The position numbers were made by a program, and so were the translations under genes. From Yuukianura sp. NJ FZ-2021 (taxonomy: Eukaryota): 64,000 bases of DNA. The DNA is taken from assembly GCA_046563655.1 (NCBI GenBank), contig CM102285.1:12400001-12464000 (forward strand), written 5' to 3'. Numbering within the stretch: position 1 is the first letter of the stretch; each line of letters opens with the position of its first letter. Shown here piece after piece: positions 6,203 to 59,663 of the stretch. The notes under the pieces were generated by a model, which made no database searches, was not told the DNA's origin, and saw nothing but the letters and a program-made list of their open reading frames with translations.

Positions 6203-9200
6203 ATGCGTACAATCAAGTGTCAGTGTGCTAGATGCAAATTGTATGTTCGTGCAACTCTTTCCGAAAATCCGGGTAAGTTAAGAAGATTAATAAGCGATTG
6301 ATTATGCTACAGCTACGCTACCACGATGTCAACCACTTCATAAGTGCGTATTATTTTAATAATTTCAATCTTTTAATCCAACTATTTACTGACTTACAGA
6401 GTATGATATCTTTGAAGAAGATGGAATTACGAAGAGGCAAACGAAATTCGAACACCGGGACTACCAGGTAAATATGTATTTGATATACTCTATGATAATT
6501 CAATTGAGTTCGGATTGAATATAATTTATGTGATGTATTTCACTAGACCGCCTTGATTGAGATAGCAAAAAGAAAAAACATCATAGCATGCCTCCCTACT
6601 GGATCCGGAAAAACGTTTATAGCCTTCAAACTGATTGAACATTTTCAAGATGAAATTATTGGGTACAAACATTTAGTATCAGTTTCGAGTTAACGTCAGC
6701 ATTAATGTGAATGAGTTCAGTTTGACAATTCTATTTATTTTTCAGTTCGGGGAAGAAGGTCATTTTTTTGGCTAATACTATTCCGCTCGTAGCACAACAA
6801 GCGGAGTTCTTTGCAAGAAATTCAATGCTTCGTGTCAAGCATCTCACTGGGGACATGGAAGTGGATTACTGGTCTGGAGAGAAGTGGGGGAATGTTGTAG
6901 AAGGATTTCAGGTAACCACTGCGTACCAACTGCTTAATTTTGTACTAAACTTGAATTCTCGAAATAACAGTGATTTGATTACTACGTTTCTTCAGATGTT
7001 TAACTTATCTTTTTTTTTTATGTGTAGATTCTGGCAATGACGACGCAGATATTCCTAAACATTATACGTCCTGCCTTTATTAAGTTTTCTCAAATTGCAC
7101 TGCTAATCTTCGACGAATGCCACCATGGTAAGCTACACTGATAAGATAATTGGCTTTTATATGAAAATTGCATTATTTATATAAGCATATACCGATCGGA
7201 ATTCTTTTCCTTCTTTCAGCTGTGAAGGACCATCCTATGAAACACGTATGCTGTACCAGTTAACACCACACTACGATATCAACTCTGTTAATTTCCTTAT
7301 GTTTGGTACAGGTTATGCAGAAATACCACGAAACGAAAATGATGGAGCCAAACTATCCTTTACCACGGTATTTGCTACCTAACTGAAGTGATCGGAGTAC
7401 TTTATTATCGTCTTCAATATTTTATTGTTTGTTGTTCTTTTAGGATTTTGGGGATGACAGCTACCATAATCAAAGGAAATTGTACGGAGTGGGAAGTCCC
7501 TGCTCGTGTTGAAGAGCTCGAAAGAACAATGCAGTCTAAAGCTGTAACATACAAGGATTACCAAGAAGTTCTGAAGTGAGTTCCCAACTCATGAACACTT
7601 TTTAGTATTTTAATACAAGAATGGGCTATTAACGATTTCCCCGAAATTTTTAGGCACTCGACCAGCAGCCGTATAAACAAGTATCGCATATCCAGTGAGT
7701 CCGATGATGCGTTGAACGCAGTTTACCTCTTGGATGAGTTAGAGGACTACTCAAAGCACCTCAATAAACTTCGAAATGAACGGAAGAAATTGAAAGCAAT
7801 AACTTCAATTAACGGAATAGATCCGACACTCCGCAGCTCCGAAAATTTATACTTGAGCTTGAAGAAGCCAACAGCTGGTGACTTGCGTATTGCTGTAGAC
7901 GACGTAAAACACTGCTGCTTGTACCTTGGTAAGTAAGCGTCGACCATGGATACCGTGTAAGTCAGCTACTGTTATTACACACAAAATCTTTCTGATCGTT
8001 AGGACCTTACTGTGGAATTATTGCCATCAATCTGAAGATTGCTTTCATCGAGTTCAGTCTTATGGACATTACCGATGGTATCATGAGAGAGTGGTACTTG
8101 AAAGTACGAACGCTGTTCAACAAGATCAAGTACGACACTCCATATTCGTCTTATTAGTTATCCTTTCGTGTAACAATGTGTTTTCTTGAGTTTAGGAGCA
8201 ACATTGAATCGTATATGAATCGATTCATGGATGACAAGTACAAAGTTATCCATTGTACGACAAAAAAGCTCCGGAAATTGGTTGAAATTGTAAAACAGGA
8301 GTTCGGGTAAGTGACAGATAGTTCCAGAAAAAACTTCGAAAGCTTTCAATGAATTTTATTTACTTACAGAATGAACGACCCTCCACCATGCATGTTTGAC
8401 GATGAAACTGGTGAGCTTGAATTAAAATATAGTTACTAAAACCCGAAGTGCTCTTATCGGAATGTTATTAACAGGAGTCTGCGGCATCGTGTTTGTTGAC
8501 CGTCGAGTTGTCGCCCAAGTTCTGGCTTGGTATTTGAAGGTAAGTGTTATCTACTTACTATAGTAATTTACGCTCTAAAGGTACTATAACATGTGTTAAA
8601 TAGTCATCACAATGATAAATCTTTTCTTTTACAGGACTTGGCTTCGCTGAATGAGGACTACGAATTCATCAGGGCAAATTTTGTTGTTGGCACTTCCAGA
8701 AGTGGGTTTGAGTCTGTCGAAAACACTGTGTATTCCAAGAAACAGAGAGAGACTATTCAAGGGTTAGCTCAATTCTTAATTTGGTCAACTAAAAAATGAA
8801 ATCTAATGCTTTTCTGTGTTCTTTTTTTTAAGGTTTCGATCCAAAAAGTACAATATTTTAGTCGCAACTGCCGTTTTGGAAGAAGGAATTGATGTACCGA
8901 GCTGCAATTTTATTGTGCGCTTTGATAAGATAGTTACATATACTTCCTACATCCAGTCAATGGGCAGAGCAAGGAAACCAAACGCTTTGTTCTGTGCCCT
9001 AATTGACGACGCCAATTATCACAAAGATGCTTCTGAGCTGGATACGTATCAGCGAATCAATGTAGCCATGGTGAGGCACCTCATTGCCAATGTCGAGAAG
9101 GTAGATGAAGAACCAAAGCCTATGGAAATTGAACATGGAGTTGAGCCGTTTTGTCCAGGAGGAACAGCTGACTCACCGAGCGTGACTATGGAATCAGCAA

Positions 9201-12200
9201 TGGACGTCATTGACAGGTACCAACGAAAACATCATAATTTCTTATCGCATAAAGTACGAGGCAAGACAGCTAATGCCTAAAGTACTAAACTTCTTAACAA
9301 ATGTCTTGCAGATACTGCAACTTACTCCCATGCGATGGAATTTCTACTTTGCAGTCTCTGAGTTGGTGGATTGAGAAGAGCGGAGGATTGGGGAATCAAT
9401 ATCAAGGCCATTTGAAGCTACCGATGAACAGCATAATCCGTGGCACAGTCAAGGTTAGTGAAGATTCTTGTTACATCGGTTCGTTTCTAGTCTGTACAAT
9501 GTATTTGCATTCTCTTGTATGTTGAAAACAGGGTTTAACAATGATTGGAAAGGATTTGGCGAGGCAGGCAGTGCATTTTGAGGCAGCGAAGATGCTATTT
9601 GAGCTTGGAGCGTTGGACGACAAACTTCTTCCGTCGAGACCAAAAATTCCCGAGAAAATTGAAGCTTACTTCAAAGCGTTGGCAGGAATTTCGGAAGAAA
9701 TAGAAGCAGAGGATGGCGAAGTAATAGAGAAGCCGGAAAGAAAACGTGAATCCCAAAAGGATAAGCCTGCGACGTGGTATAGGAAGAAGGTAAATCTGAC
9801 ATTTTGATATGTTTTGGTTTTTTTTGGTTGCATGCATATGTTAGTCTACGTTTTATTTCTGTTTTTTAGATTCCAGAAATCTTTATGGAGCGCTCATTAT
9901 CTGTTCCAAGAGACTACAAAAGTTGTCGCGTTTATCGAATTTGTTTTGATCTAACGGAACCGAATCCAAATGCGAATTACCAGTTTCGAAACATTTACAA
10001 CTTTGCAAAGGGTACTGCAATTGCCCTTGTCACTTTCGAAGACATTCCAGAGGTAAGACTGTGATTGTTATCTTTTGAAGTTCGTCTTTTCATTATAATT
10101 TTGAGCTGTATTTGACAGATTGGCAATTTTCCAATGTATGGTGGATTTGGGATCATCACTGCCTCGTTACAGTTGCTAACAAAGTTTAAAAGTCGAGACA
10201 TTCCATTTGACTACGCACCGGAGTTTCAAGAATTTGTATTCAGTGAAATCTTGGGCTTAAAAAATCGGATGCTTCAACGACAGCGGAATGCGCCTTTCTT
10301 CATGATTCCTATACGAGAGGGTGAATGACATAGACAAACATTGACAAACATGTACAACTTCACTTTACTTCGAAATCTTTTGTTTCAGTGCGAAATCGAA
10401 GTGGCAGTTCGTGGGAAGTCGACGCTCAGCTGATGGCAGACATTAGGGGATTTTCTGGAGTGAGTCGTATGAAACGACCAAACGAAGACACGAGACGACA
10501 AAGAAGACTTCCATCAAAAGAAGAGTACAAGAGGAAGTTTGAGAATGCTGTTGTTGCTCCGTGGTACAAGAAGGGCGGCCAGTTTGTAAGTTCACATTGA
10601 TAATGTGCATATACATTACAAGTAACACATTATAACTTCAGTTTCTATCTTCCGTTTAGATCTATTGTGTGGACACAGTCGAGGAAGAAATGACTCCAAA
10701 ATCTTCATTTCATGACGCAAATTACAGCAACTACAAAACCTTCATTGAAAATGAATACCGAACGAGAGTTTACGATAACAATCAGCCGCTACTAAAGACC
10801 AAATTAGCAGGAATCGGTAAAGGACCGAAGCAACTCAACTACTTGTTAGTGAAATTCGCAAAGGAAGATGAGTTTTGCGTCTACCTTCTGCCGGAACTTG
10901 TACACAAACTCCCGATTCCTGTTTCGTTCATGGTTCAACTGAAGCTTATCCCAAGCTTTCTGCATCGGTTGTATCGTCTTTTGATTGCACGAGAGATTTT
11001 GACTGACATTGCACAGTATTCACAATGGGATGGAATTTTTAACGAAAACAGAAGCAACTCTGACTCAGTTGATGATGTCAACAGACTGACGGCGGAACAA
11101 GAAGAAAAGAAAGCTGCAGATATGAAACGGCGTCAAGAGTTCCAAGATCGACTGTTGAAGGCTAAGAAGCCAATTCCAGAAGTCCAGAATATTCAAGATC
11201 GTGAGCTCCATTATGAGTTCATTCATCCGAACAGAATTACAATGAAGGACATTCAGCTATTCCATGAAGCGGTGTCTGACCATCATGCAGCCAAGAAGCT
11301 GATTTCCAAGATTGATCCAGCTTTTCAACCAGACAATATCGAGTCGGACATAGGTAAAAGTTGGTTCTGCTTCTACTAAACTTTGTCTTTGTATTTGATA
11401 AAAATAACTTTCTGTTTACAGAGCTCACTCCTATTGAAAGTATTAAGCTGAAAACCCTGCAACCGGAAATGGATTTTAGTACAACCGGCGGACCAACACT
11501 GTTGGCAGTGATGGAGGTAAGTGTGAAGCACATTTTTAAAAATCTTTGAAATAATGAACATAGGAATTGCATAATGTTAACGTACTTTGATTTTTTTAGG
11601 CATTGACACTGTTCAAGTCAAATGACGGAGTTTCATACACTCGACTGAATAGAATTGGCTGGTCGTTCCTAAATTATGTGATTTCGACGCACATTTTTAT
11701 CAATCATCCTGGATGGTCTGAACCACTGATGTGTCAGCTGAGAAATCGGCTGCTGTCGCTTACTTTTCTATGCGCAGTGGCCAAAAAGCGAAACCTGGCG
11801 GAAATTATGGCTGCTAGCGATTTTTATCCAAACGCCACTTGGACTCCACCAGGATTCAAATTGCTGGAAGGCAGAAGACTGGATTTGGGAGAAATCGCTG
11901 CAGAGCATAAAGTTCCTCTCAGAGTCTACGATGGACTTACTGATATAGCCTTGAAGGTAAGGTTAAGTCTATTTTCTAAATTCGAGGAGAGTTATGTTTA
12001 GGTCATTACCGATATATGATGTTGCTTTTTTTTTAGAACATGGAACGCACAGAATTGGAAAACTACGTGATTACAAATGCTCCCAAGTTTGTTGTCCAGC
12101 GAAAGATGCCGGGTGTGGAGGATTTAGTTGCACCAAGCCCCAAACCAGGCAGAAAACCTAAGCCGCCGTTGACTGGTGGGACATTTTCTAGCTACACGCA

Positions 12201-13756
12201 TACTGAAGTTTCGGATCAAGAAATATGCCAAGGGTTCTCAGCACTTGTGGGAGCATTTTTCATCAAATGTGGGTCGGCTGGAGCATTGAAGCTGTTGGAT
12301 TGGCTAGGATTTCGAATTCCAGACGAAAATGGAGACGAGCAAACTGTATTGACTTTGAAAGTTACGCTTCCCGCCGAAGTTTTGGATTTGACTGCTGATG
12401 TGAAAGCCGAATTGAAGCATTTAGTTCCCCTTGCAGCCAAGTTGGAAGAGAAAATTGGTTACACGTAAGAATTTTCAAGAATTTCTTGGTTTCAATTTCA
12501 AGCCTTTTCAAGTTACATTGTTGTTTTACAGATTCAAGAATCGCAGTTTACTCGTGGAGGCGCTTACCCATCCGACATACTTGGCAAATAACGTGACTCA
12601 GTGTTACCAGCGATTGGAATTCTTGGGAGATGCCATATTAGGTAAGCGAGCTACGTAAGACTGTTTGATATAAATCTTAGGAAGTTGTTTGCTCTCGTTT
12701 TCAAAACTTTGATGTTTTTTTTTTGTTCTTTAGATGCACTTTTAGCAAATCACGTCTATTCAATGACAATCAAGGAAAGTGATGGCTCAAAATACAGCAC
12801 ATTGGAGCTCAGTGAAATCTACAAGTGTTTGGTGAACAACATCACCTATGCCTCACTGGCAGTGCGTTACGGTTTGCACAAACATTTGCTCTCCATGTCA
12901 AAAGCTCTGTCGGACATGATTGACAACTTTGTGTTGTTTCAAGAAGCTAGCTCGCATCAAGTCGTTGGACATGTAAGGTTTGATAGTTAGAGAAAGTTAA
13001 CTACATTATTGGTAACGTTTACTGCGGACCCTTGGGGTTTTACGTCTAATCTAATAGTGCGAATCTTTCAGTTTACTTTAATCAGTGACGAAGAAGTTCT
13101 TGGACTTAAGCACATGGAGGTAAGCATTTACATGATTGCGTGGTGCCTGGTGCATTGATTAAGATTGCCAAGTTTAATTTGTTTGATTTAAGGTGCCGAA
13201 GGTTCTGGGAGATGTTTTCGAAGCTGTAGCTGGAGCCATTTATATTGATTCTGGAGGATCTCTTGACACAGTTTGGAAAGTATTCTACCGGCTAATGGAG
13301 CACGAAATTAGTGAGTATCGCGGATATAACGAAAAGCATAAGTTGTGTTTCTATGTTATTTCAGCGATTTTTAATTTGAGTCTCAACTAATTCTCAGACG
13401 GATTCTCGACTGCAATTCCTAAGTCTCCGATGCAAGAACTGTACGCTGAATTCCCTCAGAGTGTGACTTTTATGTAAGTTGGAAGTTGGCAAATATCAAG
13501 CCTTTAGCCTAGTTGACCAGTTGAAATCTTCATTAGAAATTCTGTCATTAGGAAATGGACGTCACAGAAAATACGGGATCGTGGACGCGAACTGTCGAAG
13601 ATTACAGTTGGACCCCACGGGTCTTACTTTGGTAGTGGGACGAACTATACCAGAGCTAAGGAAGCTGCGGCCAAGGTGGCCTTAAAAATGATCAAAGAGG
13701 AAGACCTGTTTATCAAAGATCGGGAAAATGCGTCCAACATCATGATTTTAGTTTGA
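6203..13756 (+). CDS. Dcr-2: Dicer-2-like endoribonuclease, ~1743 aa, 30 exons (helicase-DUF283-platform/PAZ-RNase IIIa[degenerate]-RNase IIIb-dsRBD)
   Basis: Exons: 6203-6272, 6400-6467, 6547-6662, 6746-6911, 7028-7127, 7220-7245, 7312-7367, 7444-7575, 7654-7928, 8003-8129, 8196-8306, 8370-8410, 8475-8539, 8635-8762, 8833-9216, 9312-9453, 9532-9789, 9870-10052, 10119-10320, 10389-10585, 10660-11353, 11422-11516, 11600-11956, 12037-12464, 12532-12641, 12734-12972, 13072-13119, 13193-13310, 13398-13473, 13537(or 13552)-13756. All introns are GT-AG and phase-compatible, total 5232 nt. Motifs: [49 protein letters not shown]283 YCNLLP...LPMNS...[16 protein letters not shown]...LLPEL; IIIb YQRLEFLGD and [10 protein letters not shown]; ds[21 protein letters not shown]. 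Dcr-2 rather than Dcr-1 is inferred from divergence. Confidence 0.93.
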
Positions 13757-14639
13757 AGACTGAGGACGTGATACAGATGAAGGAAGAAGACTGGCGATGG
13801 CGAAATCAACCATTTTTCCTACAACCAAAAGTTATTTTTAATGTAAGTTGACCTTTGGATAAAACCAACAATTTATTTTAGGCAGAACGTGTGAAAACGA
13901 ATTTATTTGGAATGAGTGTTAACTGATTGCTTTTTTCTTTTCGATGCTATTAAGTGCTTGTTAAAATCGTTTCTAGCAGATCACTGTGAAGATGAAGGCA
14001 CTCTAGAATACTTGGCTGAATGGCGGGAAAGTTAAAAATTCAATCTTCCTAATGAATTGGAAAATGATACGTGACACGAAGGCTCCCTCAAACACCAAAT
14101 GGATAATGGTTAAATTCAATTAATTGTGTTGTGCTTTGTGCATGTGTGCTTGTGAGTGAATTCTACTGATTGAGGTTTAGATCATTGAGCTCATCATTTC
14201 ACTAAGGAGACGACAACAGCTGATTGATTGACATCATTACGTGAACTGTAAATCCTGGAGGCTAGAACTGGACGGGAGAATTCTGAAAGCATATTGACAC
14301 GGTAGCTGAAGCTGTTTTGCCTGGAGCTTTAACTGCAAGTAAGTTAACTTCAGTTATCTCCTCCCTCTGACTTAATTAGAATTATGATACAAAAACCTGA
14401 AGGTGTGAAACCTTGTTGATTAACGCGTTAACAAGGTCGATTGAATTCCATATGTTAATTAACGATGTTTCTGGATTGCAGGTGTAGGTGTGTATGGACC
14501 ACTGTGCTGTGCCCTGGGACGATATTATTGCGTATTGCGCAGGCTTCAGACTGGTATTGGTGAATCGTGTCCTCGAATGACGTACGAGATCTTCACGAAT
14601 TTTCACGAGGTCAACGTCAAATCCATGTGAAATTAAATT

Positions 14640-16990: not shown

Positions 16991-18717
16991 ATGGACATAT
17001 TCTTGTTCCCTGACGAGGTTCGTTTCAGCTATTGAATAACTGTATGCTTTCTTACTCAAATCACTACTGAAAATTAACAATGTTCTGTGTATTTTCATTT
17101 TCTCATCTTTATTTTCTCTCTATAGATATTATCCATTGTTTTTGAGTATGTTTCGCAAACAGACTTGGTTCAGAGTCGACTTGTCAGCAAAGAATGGAAA
17201 CAGAAGATAGACACCCTCGTCTCTTTTCGGATCAGGCTAAACGATTCTCAACCGCAATCGTTAGTGCAACAAATGATGAGTCTTCGAGTGAGAGGTTGTG
17301 AAATCGTTCATCTGAAATTACCATTTACAGCAAAGTTCAAGAATCCTCTCTTCGTCAAGGAAATTGTTTTTACTAATTCTTCCAAGGAGAATGTGCGAAC
17401 ACTTCTAAAGGCTTGTAGTGATTTGGAGAAAATTGCTTTCTTCACTACGTTTGTTGGAGACAAATTCTTCGACATGGACAAGAAACCTGAAGAGCTGTAT
17501 CGCCTGAAGAAGTTGAAGGAGATTGAAGTTGGGATTCAAGTGTTCAACTCCAAGGGATATGGAAAAAGTTCAGTGTTTGAAACAGTTTTTGCGAATCCGC
17601 AACTCACTTTTCCTTCACTTCGTCGACTATTTGTGCATTACCCGATGTCAGCCACAGAATGGATAAATGTGTTTCAGTTTATTGGTCGACATTATGCTAC
17701 GCTTAAATGTTTAAAACTACGGTGTTTCGAGTGTCCTCTGGGAATAACGGAAGTTCCACCAGCGATAGTCAAACAGTTAACGAAATTGAAGCTGTCAACT
17801 CTTGAAATTATATGCAATTGTAGTTGTGGCGAGTACTCTCCTATTCACGACACCTTCGCGGAACTCGTAGCGGCTCAAAGCGCTTTAGAAACACTCACGT
17901 TGGACGTAAGAATAGTTGTCAAATTACATTTATTAGTAATCAAGGAATCTCAATTAACTTTAGTTCTTTGATTTTGTTTCAGTTCCATAAGTGTCCGCTT
18001 CAAGGAATCAAAGATGTCATCCGAAAATGTGCACCAACATTACAGTATGTGAAATTGTGTCAAGTGGAATTTGGTTTTGAAGATGATCTTCAAGGTTCCA
18101 TGTTTAGTGGATGTGTTCGGTTACGTGAATTGAAGCTCCATTGTCTCCCACGCGTCATCGTTTACGTTTCGTTGGAATTGGATCAGCCAGGTTGTGGAGT
18201 CCTACCGAAGCCAGTGGCAAAGGGAGCCGAAACGATTGGATGGTGTTTCCCAAAGTGCTTGAAACGTTTCAGCATCAAGAGTTGTCACATTCCAACGGAA
18301 GAACTAATCAACATGGGCTCTGATTATGGATGTCGGACACTGGAGCAGTTGGAGCTGTACGACATTGGAACAAGTGAAAGTTACGGTTACGGTTTGACCT
18401 TCGACGCTTTCATAAGTTTATGTGAAAATCTCAAGCATTTAGAGTTGTTTAATTTTCGGTGCGCGTCGTACTCGTCTTTGGAAAATGTGCATTTGGAAAA
18501 TCTGAAGTGGCAATTGATCTTGGAAGCTGGAAAGGAGCTAGGCATTTACAGTGTACCGACTTGTGATTACTCTGATCTCTTTCGTATTCGGAAAACTGAG
18601 GAAGATGATGAAGATGAAGAAAAGAATGGAGAGATTGACTTGACTGGATTATTTACGTTTCGATTTAGAGGATTAGCACAGCGCCAAAAGTTTTTGGATC
18701 GTGTAGATGTGTTGTAA
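16991..18717 (+). CDS. F-box protein with LRR/RNI-like C-terminal region, ~513 aa, 3 exons
   Basis: Exons 16991-17017, 17126-17905, 17983-18717. Spliced F-box: MDIFLFPDE|ILSIVFEYVSQTDLVQSRLVSKEW. Recurrent LxxLxL motifs follow (LKKLKEI, FPSLRRLFV, TLKCLKL, RLRELKL, TLEQLEL, NLKHLEL). Confidence 0.85.
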
Positions 18718-42200: not shown

Positions 42201-45200
42201 CTCGCGAATTATAGCTGAAACTCATGATTTGTAACGCAACTCGCGATTTGGGGCTGCGTTTTTCGGGCTAACTTGACATGGTCAAAAACATGGAGTGACT
42301 TGTAAGATTTGTTTATGTTTACTGTTTAGCCGGAGTCTGAATTCGTCGTCGAGTCATCATCAGCACAGCCATCATTCGTCGAAGGGGTTAAGGGTGCCGA
42401 GTAGTTTGGAGTGTTCCTCAAGCATTAAAATACGTAACTTGCCTTCACGTTCCTCCGACACTTCTCTCAAGGATGGTCTGTACCATGAGTACAAAAAGCA
42501 TGGGAAGTTGTCCTGGGTACGAATCCTTGGGAATGGAGCCGACCGACACGCTGTAGTTTGTTTCAAATCGGCTGAACATGCTAGTCGTGCAGTGTCCCTG
42601 TCACAGGACAAATTGTTCTTTGGATGTAAGATCCAGGTTACACCCTACCAGGGTCATGGCCGAAGTAGCGGTGGAGAGGAAGCTCTCGGAGGAACGGAAG
42701 ATGACAACAGGTTCGTTCTATTGGTCCATTTCTATTCTTGGTGTGTCGTGTCAGTGTCACATTTTACTAAGGAATGTGCTGGAAATACTTGTGTGTATAC
42801 TGGAACGAAATACTTGCGCCTACTGCTTATTACGAGCTTTCTAGTGGACTACTAGAAAGTATTCTTTGCATTTTATGCTTTGACGTTCTGCGTCTTTCTA
42901 CTTTTTTTCGGGGTTGGCATTGGATATTTTTTTGACATTGAACAACTTTTTTGTCTAGACTTTTTAATCTTCAATAGCTTTTCGAGTTTTTTGTTTTGAA
43001 GGTGCGCCCTGACCATGAGTTGGGATTTTTACGCCTTATGAATTCAGCAGTGCCAGACGACGCTGAAATTACTTATGATTAGTTGTAACTAAGGTTTTAA
43101 AGGCGTGTTGAGAGTGAAACATACAAAAGTTGCTAAAAGACAAGGACTCTTGCTGATGTTGTCATTTGGTAAATGAAAGTTATGTCACAGAGATGAAATG
43201 ACTCCGTGTCTGATATGATGAACGGACTGCACAAAAGATTGTTACGTGCCGTGTGTGCTAAGAATGATTTTGATGTGATTATGGGTTATACATAATGCTT
43301 TTGTGTAATAACTTTAGTTTTTGATCTTTCTACAGTTTCTTTGTTTCTTTTGTGTAGGCCATTTGGTGACGATGAGTTTGCGACGACGACCCCCTCTAGA
43401 ACTGTCTATGTCACTGGGCTCGACCCGTCCATCATGGCGGCGGACTTGCGGAAAACATTTGAACAATACGGCGACATTGTGGTAAGGAATTGTTTTTTGG
43501 ATTTTGAGTGCGGGAAGAACCGAAATTGGGAAGTGACAAGTGACAGACAGGTTGGATCCTCTTGGAAAGTGACAATGACACTGTCACTTTCCGCCGTCGC
43601 TGCCCGTTTGGGGAGCAGAGAGCTTGTGTGTCTACTTTTTAAATTAGTGGAAATGAAAGTGAAAGTCTTGGAGAACATGGGATTGATTGACATTTAATTT
43701 CTTTTCCTTTTTTTCTATCTTTATTTCAGGATGCTAAAGTGAGAAAACCGCTGAATGATATGGCGACATGTAGTGGAATCATTGAATTTGTGGACATTGC
43801 CAGTGCAAATAGAGCGCAGTGGGTTCGACATGCTTTCAAAGCCAGGGAAACTCGGATTTCGTTCTATCGAAATCCAGTGTCCAGCTCGATACTGCTGGAT
43901 GGAATCACTGGTGTGACGGAGAAGCAAATTACCGGTCATTGTTGTCAATTTGGTGCTATCAGTCGAATAGTCATAGACTCCGAGAGGATCCTTGCTTTGG
44001 TACAATTTGAAGAGGTGAGTTTTACTTTACTGAATAACAAAAGTTGAAATTGTTTTATTTTTCAAATCGGTGATGTCAATAAGCCTATAAGTTATTGATA
44101 AGAGTTACGAAGTGACTTTTTGGAATGAGACGGAGACCAGCACCGCCGCGGTTGGTGAAACCGCGGCAGTACATTTTTGCTTTTTTGGATTTGGTAATTG
44201 TTTTGCAGTTGGGTAATTTTATTGTGTGAATGAACTGCAGTGGGAAAGAGTGATAATTTCTTAATGAATGTGAACCATTTTAATTACAGATCTCATCAGC
44301 TCAAACGGCCTTTAGGGAACTTAAGAACTGGATCCAGAAGGGTAGACAGTTGCATGTAGATTTCGCTTCGGCGGCCTGTGTCCGACTCTTCCTCAACCGT
44401 GCATTGGCCAACAGTGGAAACAATTTGCTCTCACCTGATCTCCGCAGTGATTCTGCCACACCACCGTTCCTCTCTGGTTCACCGACCAAGAACAGACGTT
44501 CTGGTGGTAGGAAATTCAGCGATTTACAAAGTGATCGCAGGCATTCCTACAGGTAAAGCTAAAATTTGAAGTCAATAAGTTGTACTTGTTAGATGGAATC
44601 TAAATGTATTCAATGCAAATTGCAGAAACAATGAGCCTAGTTTGGGTGATGGAAAGACAGAATCAGAACTATCGCCACAACTCTGCAGTCGAAATGTCGT
44701 GGACCATCTCAGTGAGCCTCATCATCTCGAAAACTGCAATGGGCGAAGAAATTCACGGTACAATGGAATGGTAGAAGAAGTTGACCTTGGAGAGGTGCAA
44801 GATGAGAGTCGAGTTAATGGTCTCCCCACCAGTGTTGCGGAACAGCGAAGTTCTTCAAAAGTGAAACATATTACATCTTCAACCAAAATTGATCTCAGTT
44901 GTCACGAGACGGATTCGGCTGTAGTGACCTCTTCTTCAGACATAATCTGTGTGGAGAGTGAACCTACTGAGATTGAGAGCATTCCGTATGAAAATCACCT
45001 ACACAAACATATTGGAGGAACTGCTGCTCTCATCACGGTCAACGGAGATGCGCATGGGGCTACTAGCTACGAGTCAGGTAATAAAAAATAAACATTTTGA
45101 CCATGATCTTGAAATGTATTTGGCTCAAAGCGAGATTATTTTGATGATGAAACAACAACTCGTGACTCGTGATTCACTATGCTTTTTTGTGTGGTTTTTG

Positions 45201-48200
45201 ATTGACATATTTTTCTTTTGTTTTGTAAAGTGGGAGTTCTGAAGAGTCGAGCCTCATATCGTTGGAGTACTAAGTCACAAAGTGTATTTGACGGAGTGTC
45301 AAGTACATCACCACCTGAACCGAAAACTGAAACCGTCCAAAAGCTGTCGCCTGATTCAGGAATTGGCAATGGATCCTTAGTTACAGTAGAACAGTTCCCT
45401 CCAAATACGCAAATTGAATCACAAGTCTCACCCGGTAAGAAAATCTAACCATTTTCAAAATCTCTGAGTTAGTGTTGACGTTTGAACAGCATTTTTGATA
45501 ATTTTTGAAATTTTGGTTTACAGTACTAGAGGATCCTCGTAGGAAACCGTTCGAGAGCAAAATCCGTCGCTCCTCTGCTGACTCAGGGAACATTCACTGC
45601 TCAGCCTTTGTAGCCGTGAACTCTTCGGGTGGTAATTCTATTTACCCAAGTGAAACAATTATTCCTGACAAGTCAGGACAAGATTCAGATGATCGGCCTT
45701 CTACTCCTCTTTGTGATGAAAACCATGAAGCTTTTTCGGATGAACCAACAAAGTCAAGACTCATGGCTGTTACAGGGAAACCTGTTCTTCCGTTACCCAA
45801 AAGCCGTGATCAACCGCCACTCAGTCTCCCACTGCCGGAATTTGCTCAGAATCGGAGTAGCCCCTCAGATGCTCCTCAACGAAATTGCAAATCCCGCGTC
45901 TCTTCCCCAACCACGTCACCTTTGGCACCCGAAGTGGAAAGAAGCCCGGTTTCTTCACCTATCCCAGAGTCCCTGTCTCCAGAAACACCAGGGGTTGAAG
46001 CCTCTCCAGTTCCTCCAACACCCCCACAATCTGTGATGCCCTCTTCAGCAGCTTCAACTGAGGAGAACTCAACCTCTGCTCTTGCTCCTGTTGAGAAATC
46101 TTTGTCTTCATTTTCTTCTCCACCTCCTGCCAAGAGTACAAATATTGATAATACGAATGGAACGACCGGATCTGGAGCTGGTCTTCGTTCTGTTGTTCTG
46201 GGTGAGACGCTACCAGAGAACAAAGTTTCCAATAACAATCGTTCTCCACCACCAGGGATTCGGAAAAAGATGAATTCGGAGAGTCAAAAGTCGAGCGGAC
46301 GTCCGTCGAAACCTGAAGACGATACTGATAAATTGAGTTTGGACGATGAGGATGCCCTTTCCCCACCATCGTCAGACTGTGATGCAAGTCCTCGTCGTGG
46401 AGAAGAAGACTTGACACAGCGTCTGCAAGAGCTGTATCAGAGATTTGACGCTTGGGATAGTGGAAGTCGGTCAGTGGCACGGTCGCTGAGTTATGCATCT
46501 TCAAATAACACGGAAGATGGAACGGAGAGTAGCCGACTGAGTTTACATCTCGACAAACCGTGGTTGACTCGTTCAAAAGCCATTGACTTGGACGAGCTCA
46601 GACAACAACCATCTGACATCACAAAGTCGTTGATAGGGAAGCGATCTGTCTTTGACGACGACAGTCAACGGCTCGAAAGTTTGAATGATACGAATCTCAA
46701 TTCCACTAGTCTACCAGATTGGAGAGCCAGTTTCCAATCGCGCTCAAATTCAACAACTTCTATTTCGTCGAGTACATCAGTTCCACTAACGCCTAGTTCT
46801 GCGTCAAGTACTGGTAGCTCCAATGTTTTCCCACTAGCGCCGACTACAACAGTGGCACAGAGGCATCACTCATTGTCTTCGTCACAAGCGATAGAGATTT
46901 CTGGGCCATCAGCGAAATCTAACTCATCGCTTCCTCCTAAACCACCATCTACTAGCTCCGCCTCATTTCTTCCAACTGCTGGTCCACTACCCAACTCAAT
47001 TATCAAGCGAAAGGAAGGAACTCCTATGGCTGGAACTGGAGTGTCGCAATGGGCTCCAAAAGATCCACGCTTAGCACACAAAAGTAACAGTTTCCCCAGT
47101 TCTAAGATCCCAATTGCGGTTTCTACTGCCTCTCCTCAGACTCCTTCTCAAGCAGTTCCACCTCCAGTGTTCCGCTCAACATCTTTGAATGCCAATCTCC
47201 ATGCAGGGAGAGCTGAGATTCTGCCAAAGCCAGAACTGGCTCCTCCAAAGGCTAAACAACCCGGTGAACATCCAAGTGATGAAGCTCAGAAACCTCTCCT
47301 GCTAACGGAAAAATCAGCCCCACCCCCACCGCCCGGCGTTCATCAAGGAATTCCTCGAATGGTTGAGCGTTCGTTGAGTCTGGACAGCAGGAAGCCTCTT
47401 GCATCGCCTCCAACTCATCCTGCTACTAATCCGTGTAACTCAATTCCAGCGACTACTAACAGCAACAATTCTTCCGGTTTCAATCGCAAGATTAGTTTAG
47501 AATCATACACTTCCAAGGAAGGAGTTGCTTCGGCTGCTGCTTCAACATCACAGAGAAAAGAATTAGAGCCACCTCAGAAACCGAAGAATCGCGGGAATGA
47601 AGTTAAAGAGTCAAGTGTCAAAGAAGTTCCTCCAAAACCAGCCCAGCCATTGACAATCAACAGTAGTTCAGCATGTACAAATGAGTCAAAATCCATAGCA
47701 AAGTTTGACGTAAGCAAGGACGAGAGTAGGGTAACCATTCCGCACCAGCACTCTACCGTGGGAGTAGTCTCTGTACAACAGCAACCGACTCAACCAAGTT
47801 CCCATTTGCCTTCGTCTCAATCGCTGCCCATCAAAGCGGGCAGTAGCAGCAGTGGGAAGGGGAAGGAATCTAATAAAAAAGAGAAGGATCCAATTAAGAA
47901 GAGTTTGAAATCCGGTAGTAGCCTTGGCTTATCAAAATCTACGAACAACTTCAAGGAAGACTCTTCAGGCTCAAATAAATCCGGGAAAGTCAAGGAGAAA
48001 AAAGAGAAGAATGGAGAGAATCCCAGTTCTGGCGGTAGTGCAGGAGAGAAATTGAAACACGAACATGAAAACAGTCGTCACCATCATCACAAGGAGAAAA
48101 AGAAGGAAAAAGAGAAAGAGAAGGAGATTGCAGTCAAGGAGAAGAACACGTCTAATGAAATTCCCTACGCTGCCACTGCCTCTGCCTCCGGTGAACAGAA

Positions 48201-51200
48201 AAAGGAAAAGGACTTGAAGGTAAAGCGACGACTCAGCATTAGCGACATTGAACCAGGTGAGTTGTCTCTTTTTTATTCAAAAAACAGCAGTTCCGAAGCT
48301 TTCGTTTTTGAAAAATGTAGTAAGAAACTTTTCTTTTCTGAATTTTAGATTACAAGAAACAGAAACTTGAGAAGGAGAAGGACGAAGACAATGACAAGGA
48401 GAGAGAACAGACTTCATTTCCTCAGCTTGAAAATTCTCATCACAGTCGTACCAAAAGTGTAAGCTCCAGTTCTGGTTCTGTGGAACGTCGAGAGTCACGA
48501 GAATCTAGTTCGAGTACGACAAAGGAGAAGAAGGAAATTCAGAAGGAAAAGTCTCATTCGTCTACGAAATCATCAGACAAAGGAGAGACAACTTCGAGTC
48601 CTCTTCCGCCTCCTTCAAAAGACAAAAATGGGAAAAGCTATAGTAAGGACAACAAGGAAAGCAGTCATCACAGATCCAAATCAACTTCTTCCAGTAGTTC
48701 CCGGAATCATTACCACGGAAAGTCTGAGAAAACAGGCTCTACGTCGTCACTTCATTCTCACAGTAGCAAGGACAAGGAGAAACAGAAATTGAAAGAAAAA
48801 CAACAAAAGGCAGAGAAAGTGAGTTCACCAGGCGGAAAGGAGAGGGAAAACAGTAAACCAGGAACCAACTCCTCGTCTTCGTCTCAAAACAAACACTCAT
48901 CCAGTCATAATCACAGTAGTACCAGTTCTTCTGTCCATCACCGGAAGAATGAAAGAGACGAAAAGCTGTCGTCTTCGTCTCTGAAGAGTAAAAGCAAAGA
49001 AAAAGGAAGAGTCTCGAATCACTTTAACTCTGACGAAGAAGACAATGTGGACGGAGGACAGAAATATAAGAATGACAAGCCGAAGACTTCCATTTCCTCT
49101 CTCAAAAGTGAAAAGCGGGATTCGGGTAGTAGTAGTGGAAAACCGAAGAGGGATCGACAGAAGTCTGGAGGTGACAGTTCCTCTGCTCCCGGGGATTCTC
49201 TCAAAGGAGAAAGCAGTAGTTCCCGACTTAAGACCAAAGAGCAGAAAAAACGAAGATCTCGAGTTGTAGAAGATTCAGACAGTTCCACTGGTCAGGGCAA
49301 TAAGAATTTACGCATTGAATACTTTTACGATAGGATCAAAATTGCTAATCTCTGGAAACTCATTTCATTTGTAGATGATGAGGAACGAAAACATCATTCG
49401 ATCTTTGATGTCGTGGTGGACGAATACGTTTCAATGTATGATAAGGTCAAGGCCAGATCCAACCGGGCATGCAAAAATGTGGGACCCCGCAAACAGGAGG
49501 AAGAGCAACAGAAGCGGCAAGAGAAAATACAAGACCAACTACAACTTCTTAAGAAGTCGAGGTATTTGTAGTTTAGAATAAACAGTAGTTTGCTCTCATG
49601 TTTGGCTTTGAAATGTAATTTATAATCTTCATTTCAGGGCTAAGAAGGATGAGAAGAAGCGTTTCTCGGTGGATTCAAGGCGGTCGTACCAAAATTCCAG
49701 TGAAGATGAAGATAGTCGGTCCAGACATGAAAGAGAATCGTCTCATGACTTTGAAACTGACCGCAGGCGTAATACTAGCCCAGTTACTCCTCGTGGATCG
49801 CTAAGCATCATAACTGGTCTGTGTACATCAAGCGATGAGGAAAGAAAACATGAAGTCAAGCACAGCAGCAAGCCGAGCAAACCGAAAAGTAAATCTTCTC
49901 GCGATGGAAGCATCAAAAGCGAAAAGAGCAGCAGTATGAAATCGTCTAGAAAGTCCAGCAAGGCTTCACCGTTGAGAAGCTCAGCATTCTATCTCACCCA
50001 TTCTGATGAAGATAGTGGACCGTCTATGAAGAAGCGAAAAATGAGTATGAAGCACAAACCCTCTGTGGCAGTAATCAGTAGTGTGGACACGAATAAATCC
50101 TCTGATGACGAGTCCTTGTCTGAACCTACTACGTCAAAGCGACCTTCTTTGAAGAAATCGTCTTTTTCAAGAATTGAACGAAAGTCTCTAGTGGACATCT
50201 ATACGGAATCCGACAACAGTATCCAGAGTGCCAAAGAGTTACCAAAGCCGTCTCATTCATACAAAAGCAAGAAGGATAAATCAAGCAAACAAAAGTCAAT
50301 GCGCCATCTTTTTGAGACTTCGGATTCCTCAGGCGATGAGAAAAGTATGCCCACAAAGAGAGACAAAGACGTTGAGGGAAAGACGAAATCGACTGCCAGC
50401 TTTTCCAAAGACAGCAAGACGGACAAAAAGAAAGTTTCTCACCATGGGCATGGGAGTTCGAGCGGAAGTAAGAGCAGTAAGAAGAAGAGAGAAAGGCTGA
50501 GTAGTGAAGATAGTAAAAATGTCACTTCTTCCGGGGATGGAGCTTTGGCAAAGAAAAATCAACCAACAATGGAAGATTTATTATTTGGTCCAATGAGTAA
50601 TTCAGGTTCAGACTCTGAAGAGCCGCCTAAACCTATCGTAGAAGAACGGATCGAAACGCCCGCGGTCTCCAAGGGAAAGCAAACATCACTCCAGGACACA
50701 CCGCTCTCCATTTCCTCCTTCAAAAAGTCAAAGTCTGCCAGAAGCAGGAGCAAACAAAGACGGAGCTCTTCTCTCAAGAGTGGGAAGTCTGTTGATGACT
50801 CATCAGCGGCCCTTGCTAATTCAACTAACGAGAGCTCTTCTAAGCATGGTCAATCGAGTTCGGAAAAACGAAAGAAGAAACACAAGAAAGACAAGTCGAA
50901 GAGAGCTGAGAATGCGGTTCATAGGAATGAACATCCATTGGATATTGATTCTCTGTTCAATACTCCAGTGTCATCACCAATGGTTGTAGCCGAACATAAA
51001 CAGAAACCAAGTCCTGATGAAGATGATTCCAGCAAAATTACTTTGTTCGCTGCTCCTCCAGTTGAAGTCACAAACTTAATCAACGTTCAGGTTCAACCAA
51101 TTCGAACCAGCACTCCACCGAATGTTGGAGAGGAAGAGCGTCTTGGAAGATCCATGTTCTCTTCTGATGAAGACGACGATGATAAGCTGAAGATTGACAT

Positions 51201-54200
51201 CAGCGAGGCAATAATCAGTGCCTCTGGAGGAAATGAAGACGAGGATGATGACCTACCAATTCGTCTTGAACCGGCAATCTGTCCAACTACCCCGCCTACC
51301 AATGAACGGGCTATGGATGAGGAGGCTGCTGTGGCCGCTGCCAATTTACTTGAAGAGGAGGAGAAGAATAGGAACTGTCTGGTTGAACAGGACAAGGCCA
51401 TTGAGAGTATTCTGATGGAACGAAAGAGTCCGCCAAGAACGCCTGTTCTTGGTACCATTGGTGGATTGGGTCAACTTCAACCGCAAAGGGATTTGGACTC
51501 TGATTATCTCATCAAAGATGAACTAAAGGATGAGACTGCTATTTCACAAGAAGAAACAGAAGATGCTGTGGCAGCACTCCTCAAAAACCTTGGCAATGAC
51601 GATGACATCGAAACGGAAGAGACACTTGAGAAACGTCCTGCGTCACCACCAACCATACGCATAATTGAGGAAGTAGCTTCTCCTGCTCTTTCGTTTAGTG
51701 AACAACAGTCTGTGGGAAGTGAACAGGAAACTCCCATTTGTGGTCCGTCTAACTGGTTCACCTCTGCCTCGCCTACCAAATCCCCAAAGAGTCAAGAGCC
51801 AGAAGATCTTGAGATTCCAGCTGCCTTTGGAAGTGATGCCCCTTTGATTGATGATACTTGCAGATCACCACCGAGGAAAAAGAGATTGACTTGTGAGGAG
51901 GCGTCGCTTCAACTCCACAATGTTTTGGAAATGGCGAAACAAGCAATGGCAGAGTCAAAGAAAATGGAAGAGGAAGTCGTTCCTATTTCACTACCAGTAC
52001 CAAGCATAGATTCACCTTTACCACCTGAGAAACCAACTGGGCCTGTAAATGAAGCTAGTGAGGGCGGAGCTTCTTCTGGAGATGTTTACGATTTTCATGA
52101 TTCGGATGACGAAGGTGTACGAGCTATTCCACCAGCTCCAATGCCACCGCCTGCACCAGCACCAGTAGTATCTCCAGTTGTCAGCGTTCCAGCTCCACTA
52201 ATTATAAATTCGAAACCAGAATCCAAGGCAATCACACCACCAAGAACACGATCGCCGGCATCTTCAGGACTTTTGGAATTGGTAATCGAGAAACTACCAC
52301 TCAATCCACCTCAACCCCAATCGGTATCACAATTTTCACCAAAGGCACGACCGATTCAGCAATTTCCAATCCATGCTCCTTTGCCGCAGCAGTTGAAACC
52401 TATAACCATTGAAGTTCCTGCTGAACCTGCACCGATTCAGGCTTCTGTCACTCCGGTTCGTCCTTTGGTTCCGGTGAAACTTCAAAGCCCAGCAAAAGCT
52501 TCGCCAGTTCCTGTTCAATTTGTACCAACTACACCACCCGTTCCGCTATTGGCAGCGAACAGAACACCGCCAGCTCCTATCCCGGCAGCAGTTCACAAAA
52601 GTAGTATTGACGAGACTATTGAAGATGTTATTCGAAACTTCAAGTTGGCTGAAGTTCCCTATTCAGAGACAGTCCACCCTCTACCAATTCATCCACCAGG
52701 AAGAAAGGGAAAACGAAGGTCCGGGAGCAAAGACTCGGATGAGATTCCCAGCATTCCGGCGAAAAGTCGACAACAGTCACCAACGAGAAGGATTCCAGTT
52801 TCGTCTCATCTTCAACCAATGCCGGTACATGTCCAGAATCAGACTCCGCAGCAGAAGCCACAACCAAAAGTTAACGCAATTCCAATGATTGAGACTCGAA
52901 CTGATAGCCATGGACCATCCATTTCCGAAGGCTATCTGATTGATCCGCAAACAGGTCATCTCACACATAAGTCGGGACAACTTGACGAGGCGCAGTATGT
53001 TCCTGTTTCAGGTCAAGACATGGCCAAAGTACATTACATCCACGGTCCACCACCACCACAAAATCATCTACAGCCAAGGGGTGGGCAAAAGTCAGATTTG
53101 GAAAGAGCGGGATCCGTGGAGAGAATTGCTCCAGAACCTCAACCGTATCAAATTCAGATTCAAAAGAATGAAGGTTTGCCAGCAATTTTGGCACAACAAC
53201 AACAGCATCATATTCTTCAGCAACAAATTCCTGACAGTAACCGAAGACAAAGTCCATCATCCGCTCACACTCCACCGGGAGGACATTTGCAACGTAAGGA
53301 CAGTTTTGGACAAACGAGAGCCTCGCCACCAGTATCAAGTCCTTCATTCAACTTTGCTCCGATGAGAATGCCAACGGTTCAGAGTCCTCCAACAAGCATG
53401 CCAGGACGAATGCAAGGAGTTTATCAAATTCCAACTTCACAACCGGGATATACTTCTCTGATGAGACCACAACAAGATCCTCAAAGTCTCCGACCTCGTC
53501 ATCAGCTTCCGATTGGCCAGCATGTACCATCCCCAGGTCAAATTCAAGCTCAACTGGTCAGAATCCCGCAAATTCCTATGGCCACAACCATTACGAAAGT
53601 GGACGCAAGGAATGATGAACTGCAAAATAGGAAAGCAAGCCTTTCTCAGCCACCATCCACGGTCATTCTAACCACAACAAGCAATGGACCGATCGATATC
53701 ATGTCTGGCGTCCGTCTGTCAGCTCCACACCATCTGCAAGCTAGAGCTCACGTATGTCGTTTTTTCTTGTATCATCTCAGTTTCTACTCTACTACTGTGC
53801 TGTTCATTTCAAAATTTTGACTTTGATCTTACAGGAGGGTTATATCTCCCAAGGGCCGCCGAGAATCGAAATTGGAGGAGGAATCGTGCAACCTGCAGCC
53901 GGAAGTCCCAAGGGAAGAGTCTCTCAACAACACGAACAAGCCCAGCAACAAGCATCTCAACATCGAATGCATCATATTCCATACGAACCTCCAATGGTAT
54001 GTCATTACTTTTTTATTCACAGTTTTTTAACTTTTAAGTTTTGAGTGAATGAGAAAACACGAAATATAATGCAACTGATGGGAATAACTAGGGCGATCCC
54101 ACGTCTCCTGCACCACTGGACTTGGCTCCACCGTCTGCACATAATCACTCCCGGTCCAATAACAATAATAACCCCGTTGCTAAAAACTTAGCCAGAACTA

Positions 54201-57766: not shown

Positions 57767-59663
57767 AAGTTTGAATGGAGGAAAAAGTTGAGGGATTAAT
57801 CCATTCAAAAGTCATCACTTTTCGACTCAACTTTTTCATCCCCCTGCAAACACTCATTTTTAGTAGTTTTTCACTTCAAAAAACTTCCACTTTGCAGCGA
57901 TTTCTGTGGCTCCAGCGCTCGGATCTAGTCATACGACATCGTCCTAAACAATTTTATGTCAAAATTTTAAAAAACAAAAAACAAGAAGTACAGAAAAAAA
58001 GCACAGCATCAAAATTTTGACAGCTTGAGGGTGCTTTTCAGAATTTTTTAAAAAATCTACACATTTTTCTGAATTCAGGGGTGTAGAGTAAAATTCTCTA
58101 TGTCTTTCCGTTAAAAAGTTATGAATTTTTAAAGTTTTTTGAATTTTGAAATTAAGTTTGAATGGCGAAAAAGTTGAGGGATTAGCCCATTCAAAAGTCT
58201 TCACTTTTCGACTCAACTTTTTCAACACTCATTTTTAGTAGTTTTTCACTTCAAAAAATTTCCACTTTGCAGTGGTTTCTCTAGCTCCAGCGCTCGGATC
58301 TAGTCATACGACATCGTCCTAAACAATTTGATGTCAAAATTTTAAAAAATAAAAAACAAGAAGTACAGAAAAAAAGTACAGCATCAAAATTTTGACAGCT
58401 TGAGGGTGCTTTTTAGAATTTTTTAAAAATTCTACACATTTTTCTGAATTCAGGTGTGTAGAGTAAAATTCTCTATGTCTTTCCGTTAAAAAGTTATGAA
58501 TTTTTAAAGTTTTTTGAATTTTGAAATTAAGTTTGAATGGCGAAAAAGTTGAGGGATTAGCCCATTCAAAAGTCTTCACTTTTCGACTCAACTTTTTCAA
58601 CACTCATTTTTAGTAGTTTTTCACTTCAAAAAATTTCCACTTTGCAGTGGTTTCTCTAGCTCCAGCGCTCGGATCTAGTCATACGACATCGTCCTAAACA
58701 ATTTGATGTCAAAATTTTAAAAAATAAAAAACAAGAAGTACAGAAAAAAAGTACAGCATCAAAATTTTGACAGCTTGAGGGTGCTTTTTAGAATTTTTTA
58801 AAAAATCTACACATTTTTCTGAATTCAGGGGTGTAGAGTAAAATTCTCTATGTCTTTCCGTTAAAAAGTTATGAATTTTTAAAGTTTTTTGAATTTTGAA
58901 ATTAAGTTTGAATGGCGAAAAAGTTGAGGGATTAGCCCATTCAAAAGTCTTCACTTTTCGACTCAACTTTTTCAACACTCATTTTTAGTAGTTTTTCACT
59001 TCAAAAAATTTCCACTTTGCAGTGGTTTCTCTAGCTCCAGCGCTCGGATCTAGTCATACGACATCGTCCTAAACAATTTGATGTCAAAATTTTAAAAAAT
59101 AAAAAACAAGAAGTACAGAAAAAAAAACACAGCATCAAAATTTTGACAGCTTGAGGGTGCTTTTTAGAATTTTTTAAAAAATCTACACATTTTTCTGAAT
59201 TCAGGGGTGTAGAGTAAAATTCTCTATGTCTTTCCGTTAAAAAGTTATGAATTTTTAAAGTTTTTTGAATTTTGAAATTAAGTTTGAATGGCGAAAAAGT
59301 TGAGGGATTAGCCCATTCAAAAGTCATCAGTTTTCGACTCAACTTTTTCATCCCCCTCCAAACACTCATTTTTGGCAGTTTTTCACTTCGAAAAATTTCC
59401 ACTTTGCAGCGATTTCTGTGGCTCCAGCGCTCGGATCTAGTCATACGACATCGTCCTAAACAATTTGATGTCAAAATTTTAAAAAATAAAAAACAAGAAG
59501 TACAGAAAAAAAGCACACCATCAAAATTTTGACAGCTTGAGGGTGCTTTTTAGAGTTTTTTAAAAATTCTACACATTTTTTTGAATTCAGGCGTGTAGAG
59601 TAAAATTCTCTATCTCTTTCCGTTAAAAAGTTATGAATTTTTAAAGGTTTGGAAATTTAAATT
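57767..59663. repeat. Tandem array of about 5 copies of a 375-387 bp AT-rich unit
   Basis: Anchor AAGTTTGAATGG at 57767, 58154, 58529, 58904 and 59280 (periods 387, 375, 375, 376). The near-identical 89-aa ORFs repeated in the ORF track reflect this array. Confidence 0.95.

Follow-up and report, generated by a model that had tools for sequence, protein, structure and literature searches.

A Dicer-2-like gene of Yuukianura sp. NJ FZ-2021 with a predicted inactive RNase IIIa domain and a conserved RNase IIIb domain

To our knowledge, the two-site processing centre of Dicer has been treated as invariant in animals, and the one-sided Dicers that we know of are tumour mutations, engineered mutants or a fragment made by a caspase. 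The two RNase III domains of one Dicer, IIIa and IIIb, form this single centre. When IIIa is dysfunctional, no microRNAs are made from the 3' arm, when IIIb is dysfunctional, none are made from the 5' arm, and partial activity is kept (PMC4482082, which like the other papers named below is cited from excerpts). Human and mouse DICER1 proteins with one inactive RNase III domain, known from the IIIb hotspots of tumours and from engineered IIIa mutants, are thus Dicers with one dead half (PMC4482082), but these are microRNA Dicers whose point mutations arose somatically or by engineering. Here we describe a Dicer-2-like gene in which all catalytic acids of IIIa have been replaced in the germ line, a loss that is conserved in a clade, and in which those of IIIb are all kept. 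The gene lies in a stretch of 64,000 nucleotides of Yuukianura sp. NJ FZ-2021 (NCBI GenBank assembly GCA_046563655.1, contig CM102285.1, positions 12,400,001 to 12,464,000 of the forward strand). We call this whole stretch the window, and coordinates are counted from its first letter.

Dimers of a catalytic and a non-catalytic RNase III domain are found in the editosome of trypanosomes, where KREN1-3 are paired with KREPB6-8 (PMC6800513, PMC9508840). With their non-catalytic partners, the KREN endonucleases are proposed to cleave the mRNA strand of a duplex and leave the other strand uncut (PMC6800513). The chain described here, with one dead and one intact domain, might be a parallel in mechanism. 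The KREN/KREPB heterodimer, however, is intermolecular and consists of small, unrelated mitochondrial proteins without helicase or PAZ domain, and it is not homologous in Dicer architecture. Another one-sided enzyme is the C-terminal fragment of C. elegans DCR-1, which is generated by a caspase, contains only IIIb and acts as a DNase (Nakagawa et al. 2010, via PMC4482082). In that case helicase, PAZ domain and most of IIIa are absent from a product of proteolysis, whereas the gene in the window encodes the whole protein, including a IIIa domain that is predicted to be folded but dead. Natural Dicers with a deviating IIIa have been listed in other phyla, in Trichoplax and in protists: the RNase IIIa domains of Trichoplax DCL1b and Albugo DCL2, and a few others, deviate in both motifs, ExxGD and DxxE (PMC4791657). 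As excerpted, that paper lists these variants without follow-up and without an analysis of conservation or selection, and they are compared here by mention only; its list is nevertheless the nearest precedent in the material consulted. For arthropods, full-text literature searches found no description of a Dicer with a dead IIIa, and none is contained in the excerpts of a Dicer review (PMC10328071), a tardigrade study (PMC12505628), a survey of RNA interference (RNAi) in insects (PMC5521735) and a preprint on RNAi in Drosophilids. In aphids, both copies of dcr-1 keep their catalytic residues (PMC2857804).

The closest architectures are those of arthropod Dicer-2-like Dicers such as Folsomia candida XP_021960857.1, Hetaerina americana XP_071454543.1 and the 'Dicer-2' of Larinioides. 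They have the same domain order as the protein described here, including the helicase motifs (QSMGRAR among them), the PAZ domain, IIIb and the double-stranded RNA-binding domain (dsRBD). The difference is found in IIIa. The Folsomia protein, P0144 in our set, and all other examined members of the Dicer-2-like clade keep every acid of this domain, and the window Dicer keeps none.

The window contains a single Dicer gene, which can be read from start to stop codon and encodes a protein of about 1675 amino acids (Table 1). Our own splice model was made by dynamic programming, homology and manual correction, with the boundaries 9216/9312, 12532 and 13537 set manually. It has 29-30 exons, and the length of the protein varies from 1657 to 1694 amino acids across the alternatives. 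Four internal boundaries are ambiguous, and all 16 of their combinations are in frame with one terminal stop. The first exon is also uncertain, and here too the alternatives remain in frame. Introns are mostly 60-120 nucleotides long and make up 33% of the gene span. A tblastn search with 11 Dicers gave matches confined to 6553-13705 on the + strand, that is, to one locus.

The order of the domains is complete for a Dicer, with helicase, Dicer-dimer, PAZ, two RNase III domains and dsRBD, and the protein aligns end to end with 50 Dicers. Pfam scans were run exon by exon, so that the bit scores in Table 1 refer to single exons and parts of domains. When the helicase region is aligned to Dicer-2-like and Dicer-1 proteins, motifs I, II, III and VI can all be recognised and the kept motifs read PTGSGKT, DECHH, GMTAT and QSMGRAR. 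In these columns Drosophila Dcr-1 has degenerate sequence (GHRSSKE, LEDCH), and the helicase of the window Dicer is predicted to be of the ATPase-competent type, unlike that of Dcr-1. Both its descent and its architecture make this a Dicer gene, yet its product would be no canonical two-site enzyme.

Table 1. Features of the predicted Dicer gene in the window, with the evidence for each.
Feature	Coordinates	Strand	Evidence
Whole Dicer-2-like gene	6203..13756	+	Splice model, tblastn
DExD/H helicase region, several exons	6547..9216	+	Pfam ResIII (26.4 bits), DEAD, Helicase_C (43.9 bits); motif alignment
Dicer dimerisation (DUF283) region	9312..9789	+	Pfam Dicer_dimer (24.1 bits, cut-off 23.7); splice 9216/9312
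Largest exon, PAZ domain and connector	10660..11353	+	Pfam PAZ (32.8 bits, cut-off 28.8)
RNase IIIa exon 1, motif 1 TRLNRIGWS	11600..11956	+	Pfam Ribonuclease_3 (PF00636, 30.9 bits, cut-off 27); structure and 50-Dicer alignments
RNase IIIa exon 2, motif 2	12037..12464	+	Alignment to Dcr-1 8dfv residues 1896-1934; 50-Dicer alignment; P0192
RNase IIIb exon 1, QRLEFLGD at 12608-12631	12532..12641	+	Pfam Ribonucleas_3_3 (PF14622, 32.4 bits); 50-Dicer alignment
RNase IIIb middle exons, 12734-12972 and 13072-13119	12734..13119	+	Pfam Ribonuclease_3 (21.1 bits, partial exon); tblastn
RNase IIIb last exon, KVLGDVFE at 13199-13222	13193..13310	+	Pfam Ribonuclease_3 (22.1 bits, profile positions 83-102); 50-Dicer alignment
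C-terminal dsRBD exons, 13398-13473 and 13537-13756, with stop	13398..13756	+	Pfam Dicer_dsRBD (23.1 bits, below cut-off 26, partial piece); manual splice reading

In HMMER searches against solved structures, motif 1 of IIIa aligns with ERLETIGDSFL of Drosophila Dcr-1 (8dfv, E 1.8e-13) and with ERLEMLGDSFL of human and mouse Dicer (5zak and others), and motif 2 aligns with DKSIADCVEALIGA of Drosophila Dcr-1. Where motif 1 should have the acids E..E...D, the window Dicer has T (11639-11641), N (AAT, 11648-11650) and W (TGG, 11660-11662). In motif 2 the lysine has become Q (CAA, 12217-12219), the aspartate Q (CAA, 12229-12231) and the glutamate S (TCA, 12238-12240). Read directly from the codons, each of the acid replacements takes at least 2 base changes, and the two motifs sit in separate exons. 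As comparators, 50 full-length Dicers were taken from an exhaustive HMMER search and aligned by MAFFT. Both glutamates and the aspartate of motif 1 are kept in all 50, and the D..E of motif 2 is kept in all 49 that have the region (P0117 is gapped there). The window Dicer deviates at all five acid positions and at the lysine of motif 2, and it retains the fold-defining residues around the motifs. The domain is predicted from this to be catalytically dead, with the usual metal binding impossible.

RNase IIIb keeps all four acids and the lysine in its two motifs, QRLEFLGD and KVLGDVFE. Its catalytic positions are the same as in every comparator in which the region is present (48/50 for motif 1 and 43/50 for motif 2, the rest being gapped). 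Domain by domain, IIIb is also the most conserved part of the window Dicer. Its identity to the IIIb of canonical Dicer-2-like proteins is 49-53%, close to the 52-59% between canonical pairs. The N-terminal core of IIIa has 31-39% (canonical pairs 38-46%) and its C-terminal core 31-37% (canonical pairs 48-51%), and the helicase is 42% identical to that of P0144. By these domain-wise identities, IIIb is constrained to the degree seen in working Dicers, and the constraint on IIIa is changed or weaker. The initial annotation of this locus had already described the replaced catalytic residues of IIIa, with two or more substitutions for each acidic change in two different exons, a kept IIIa fold, an intact IIIb and an open frame of 30 exons. 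Its codons and coordinates for the motifs of both domains were all correct on re-reading, and each of these descriptions agrees with our own model, which is open throughout, and with the alignments, in which five acids of IIIa differ from the 50 Dicers and the solved structures and both IIIb motifs match the consensus.

The loss of the IIIa acids is common to a clade and not private to this genome. When the IIIa exon was the query of the exhaustive HMMER search, no full-length protein was more than 35% identical to it, and the search returned short fragments from SRA assemblies and metagenomes with 46-50% identity. Altogether four fragments derived from metagenomes or SRA, 43-53% identical to the window Dicer, are also without IIIa acids. 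For the window Dicer the two motifs read TRLNRIGW and QGFS at the positions in question. P0001 (48% identical) has DCFKEIGATFL and P0002/P0152 (50% identical) has ERLKCIGSSFM as motif 1, and in both of them motif 2 lies outside the fragment. L001, a metagenome locus of 1079 nucleotides and the sole locus that came from the metagenome scan, is 43% identical and has GKLSRMGNSFL as motif 1 and DADISNGLSGLVGA (NGLS) as motif 2. P0192, retrieved by a word search in which the second IIIa exon was the query, is 53% identical over this whole exon and has DMEIAQGLCALVGA (QGLC) as motif 2, with motif 1 outside the fragment. Word-based searches against longer proteins gave no match for the IIIa exon and three weak matches for the helicase exon, with no orthologs found.

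The replacement residues vary among the dead sequences (N/K/K/S, W/A/S/N, Q/N/Q and S/S/C at the positions concerned), and the fold residues IG.SF, W.PPG and ALVGA are conserved across them, together with a clade-specific stretch. Varied replacements with kept fold residues are the pattern that is expected of an old catalytic loss with continued structural constraint. Relatives with the same loss exist in these four cases; the initial annotation had proposed to look for orthologs of this kind. Three further fragments from metagenomes and ENA (P0154, P0103 and P0153) carry the signature of the dead clade, EPLL..FRN and GLPEILSGSDF.P..SW.PPG, and begin after motif 1.

In a tree of the IIIa domain, the dead fragments and the window Dicer fall into a single clade with a support of 99 (Shimodaira-Hasegawa-like approximate likelihood ratio test, SH-aLRT) on a long stem. 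They are part of a clade of 10 rows with a support of 92, which also contains the canonical fragments P0012, P0032, P0040, P0042 and P0022 and P0144 of the springtail Folsomia. Full-length trees were calculated with FastTree for 51 rows and with IQ-TREE under the LG+C20 mixture model for 23 rows. In both of them the window Dicer and P0144 are joined with a support of 100, followed by the Dicer-2-like proteins of Hetaerina (a damselfly) and Cryptolaemus (a beetle) with 99-100, and then by the 'Dicer-2' of the spider Larinioides with 95-99. This Dicer-2-like clade is separate from Drosophila Dcr-1 and from the Dicers of a tick (Ixodes), mites and molluscs. P0144, which is the nearest full-length relative and has a canonical IIIa, bears the label 'endoribonuclease dcr-1' at NCBI; its identity to the window Dicer is 38-40% over about 1200 columns, and the terminal branch of the window Dicer is long (1.07-1.29 in the full-length trees). 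The gene is thus placed in the arthropod Dicer-2-like lineage, where the label 'Dicer-2' comes from trees that have long branches and do not include Drosophila Dcr-2, and from one name given by the source. The arthropod framing of the initial annotation fits this placement. An assignment to a subfamily by scores against PDB structures was rejected. For the IIIa exon, Drosophila Dcr-2 gives a lower score than Dcr-1 and human Dicer do, but the helicase exon and P0144 behave in the same way, so that these scores do not discriminate between Dcr-1 and Dcr-2.

The explanation that we prefer, and to which we give about an even chance, is that this is a functional Dicer-2-like gene with IIIa as a pseudo-nuclease, coding for a strand-nicking enzyme that goes back to a single ancestral loss in a clade maintained since then. 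By their sequence, IIIb, helicase, PAZ domain and dsRBD seem to be functional. As for the mechanism, we infer that the enzyme most likely nicks one strand and uses IIIa as a scaffold. The protein would still bind and measure double-stranded RNA (dsRNA) in the way of Dicer-2. IIIa would contribute structure to the intramolecular dimer, as a scaffold or in RNA binding, and hydrolysis would be carried out by IIIb only. The cut strand would then be the one positioned at the IIIb site; in canonical Dicers this is the arm bearing the 5' phosphate (the 5' arm). Since each domain cuts one strand and IIIa is predicted to be dead, only the strand at IIIb would be cut. Probably no more than one strand of dsRNA can be cut by the protein, and the duplex would be nicked and not diced. 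The loss of IIIa would be a single event in the ancestor of a clade with members in metagenomes as well, and this clade would have been maintained from then on. A more far-reaching idea is possible, although we lean against it: a lineage of arthropod Dicer-2 paralogs, old and conserved, may have turned into ATP-driven, strand-specific nickases, with threading by the helicase and cutting by IIIb, and may form an unrecognised branch of RNAi against viruses or transposons. If this is true, the products would be small RNAs that are derived from a single strand or are strand-biased, nicked duplexes, or nicks in DNA, and the enzymes would work beside the canonical dicing enzyme or instead of it.

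Drosophila Dcr-2 has roles in the loading of small interfering RNAs and in virus sensing that are independent of dicing. The window protein might likewise be a sensor of dsRNA or a loader of small RNAs that works through helicase, PAZ and dsRBD, a paralog for signalling or for loading of the RNA-induced silencing complex in which cleavage by IIIb is irrelevant or minimal. We consider this rather unlikely, though it is the strongest of the rival explanations. No change is seen in the helicase motifs PTGSGKT, DECHH and QSMGRAR, and the helicase identity to the nearest canonical relative is that given above. Moreover, catalysis by IIIa is dispensable in the dead-IIIa clade. What such a role explains poorly is IIIb, which has kept its four acids and lysine and is the best-conserved domain, whereas the equivalent positions of IIIa have drifted freely in the same protein. 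Without cutting, this asymmetry is hard to explain.

A clearly less likely role is to work alongside a canonical Dicer-2 of this organism, as its partner or modulator. The window protein would compete for substrates or pre-process them, for instance by nicking or holding dsRNA on which the canonical enzyme completes the work, or it would be a regulator. The 10-row clade that unites the dead sequences with canonical fragments and P0144 is compatible with a duplication into canonical and dead paralogs and would suit such a pair, but those canonical fragments may come from other species. Within the window there is no second Dicer, neither in the tblastn search with 11 Dicers nor in a six-frame motif scan.

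Whether the gene is maintained at all can be judged from polymorphism. The gene is covered by contigs of 4 DNA runs from 2 studies, under two organism labels. As examples, record 7 of X1 covers 12030-12657 with 1 difference, record 24 of X3 covers 12097-12666 with 3 differences, and record 31 of X4, which comes from the other study and under the other label, spans 12179-12531 without gaps and with 12 differences. Diversity is very high, with 465 single-letter differences and 116 indels over the 7.4 kb at 6400-13800, and the variant analysis is based on 40 of these differences and 12 of these indels. None of the 40 differences touches a motif codon. In our gene model 16 of them are synonymous, 12 nonsynonymous and 12 intronic, and the 28 coding differences give a ratio of nonsynonymous to synonymous polymorphism per site (pN/pS) of about 0.21 (1086 synonymous and 3939 nonsynonymous sites). 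All 12 examined indels are intronic; 6 of them are clustered at 13129-13142, which leaves roughly seven independent events. The open frame, the pN/pS and the intronic indels together point to purifying selection on a gene that is maintained and not decaying. The possibility of a decaying duplicate, which the initial annotation had raised, is largely refuted by them and in our view very improbable. Such a young pseudogene would have kept its frame open by chance over about 30 exons. The IIIa domain is indeed less conserved than in canonical pairs and the terminal branch is long, as a pseudogene would lead one to expect, but the IIIb and helicase motifs are intact, and relatives at 43-53% identity have open exons and conserved fold residues.

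That the IIIa replacements are an artefact of sequencing or assembly, or come from mis-spliced exons, is scarcely credible, as nothing beyond the approximate gene model speaks for it and against it stand contigs of 4 runs and 2 studies that cover the exons, changes of at least 2 bases each inside long open exons that align end to end with Dicers, the same loss in independent relatives, and the absence of a canonical IIIa motif elsewhere in the window. The initial annotation had also argued against sequencing error, and it had considered an alternative exon with canonical IIIa motifs; a six-frame motif scan across the window found no such exon and matched only the two IIIb sites.

The contigs show two other features. 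Some of them are 8-10% divergent, with 50 differences at 7772-8293 and 32 differences at 11746-12126. The high diversity could be due to divergent haplotypes, to pooled individuals or to a recent second copy of the dead-IIIa gene. There is also a length polymorphism of 84 nucleotides, where 9220-9303 is skipped in contigs of X1 and X2. It lies inside the intron 9217-9311 of the corrected model, and it was therefore rejected as an exon deletion. It was also rejected as a splice event, since the piece begins with CC and ends with TG and is not of the GT..AG type.

A functional nicking Dicer has to be weighed against several points. The gene and its splice pattern are known here from DNA alone. 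The IIIb acids were read in the window gene only, as the fragments of the four relatives end before IIIb, and what conserves these acids could be metal-dependent RNA binding or stability instead of cutting. Human DICER1 shows that one RNase III domain can be disturbed by changes in its neighbour (PMC6695490), so that a dead IIIa need not leave IIIb fully active. The pN/pS comes from 40 of 465 differences and an approximate gene model, and the contigs may combine sequence from different haplotypes, close paralogs or individuals. Finally, the count of paralogs covers the window, and it is possible that a canonical Dicer-2 coexists with the gene.

Other parts of the window contain features of their own. 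Just downstream of the Dicer gene, at 17126-18714 on the + strand, there are two long overlapping open frames of 281 and 297 amino acids that are seemingly poor in introns. The first has a match to the F-box (PF00646, 21.5 bits), and the rest is without Pfam match. A very large gene extends over about 32100-55200 (+), with weak matches to the RNA recognition motif (RRM) at 42277-42852 and 43296-43694 and with long serine/lysine-rich open frames of 948, 409 and 1402 amino acids at 45502-53817; its product may resemble a protein of the SPEN/split-ends type. At 18000-44000 the + strand has a sustained positive GC skew (up to 0.33) with a negative AT skew, and the sign flips near 44-48 kb. On the - strand, at 59034-59549, an open frame of 172 amino acids without Pfam match contains a stretch of about 30 residues twice, which suggests a tandem or dispersed repeat.

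If it is true that arthropods have a Dicer-2-like enzyme that works with IIIb only, encoded in the germ line and maintained, the half-enzyme state would be one that has been used by evolution. It would then offer a natural system in which to ask what the products of a nicking Dicer are, where strand choice originates, and what the non-catalytic job of an RNase III domain is.

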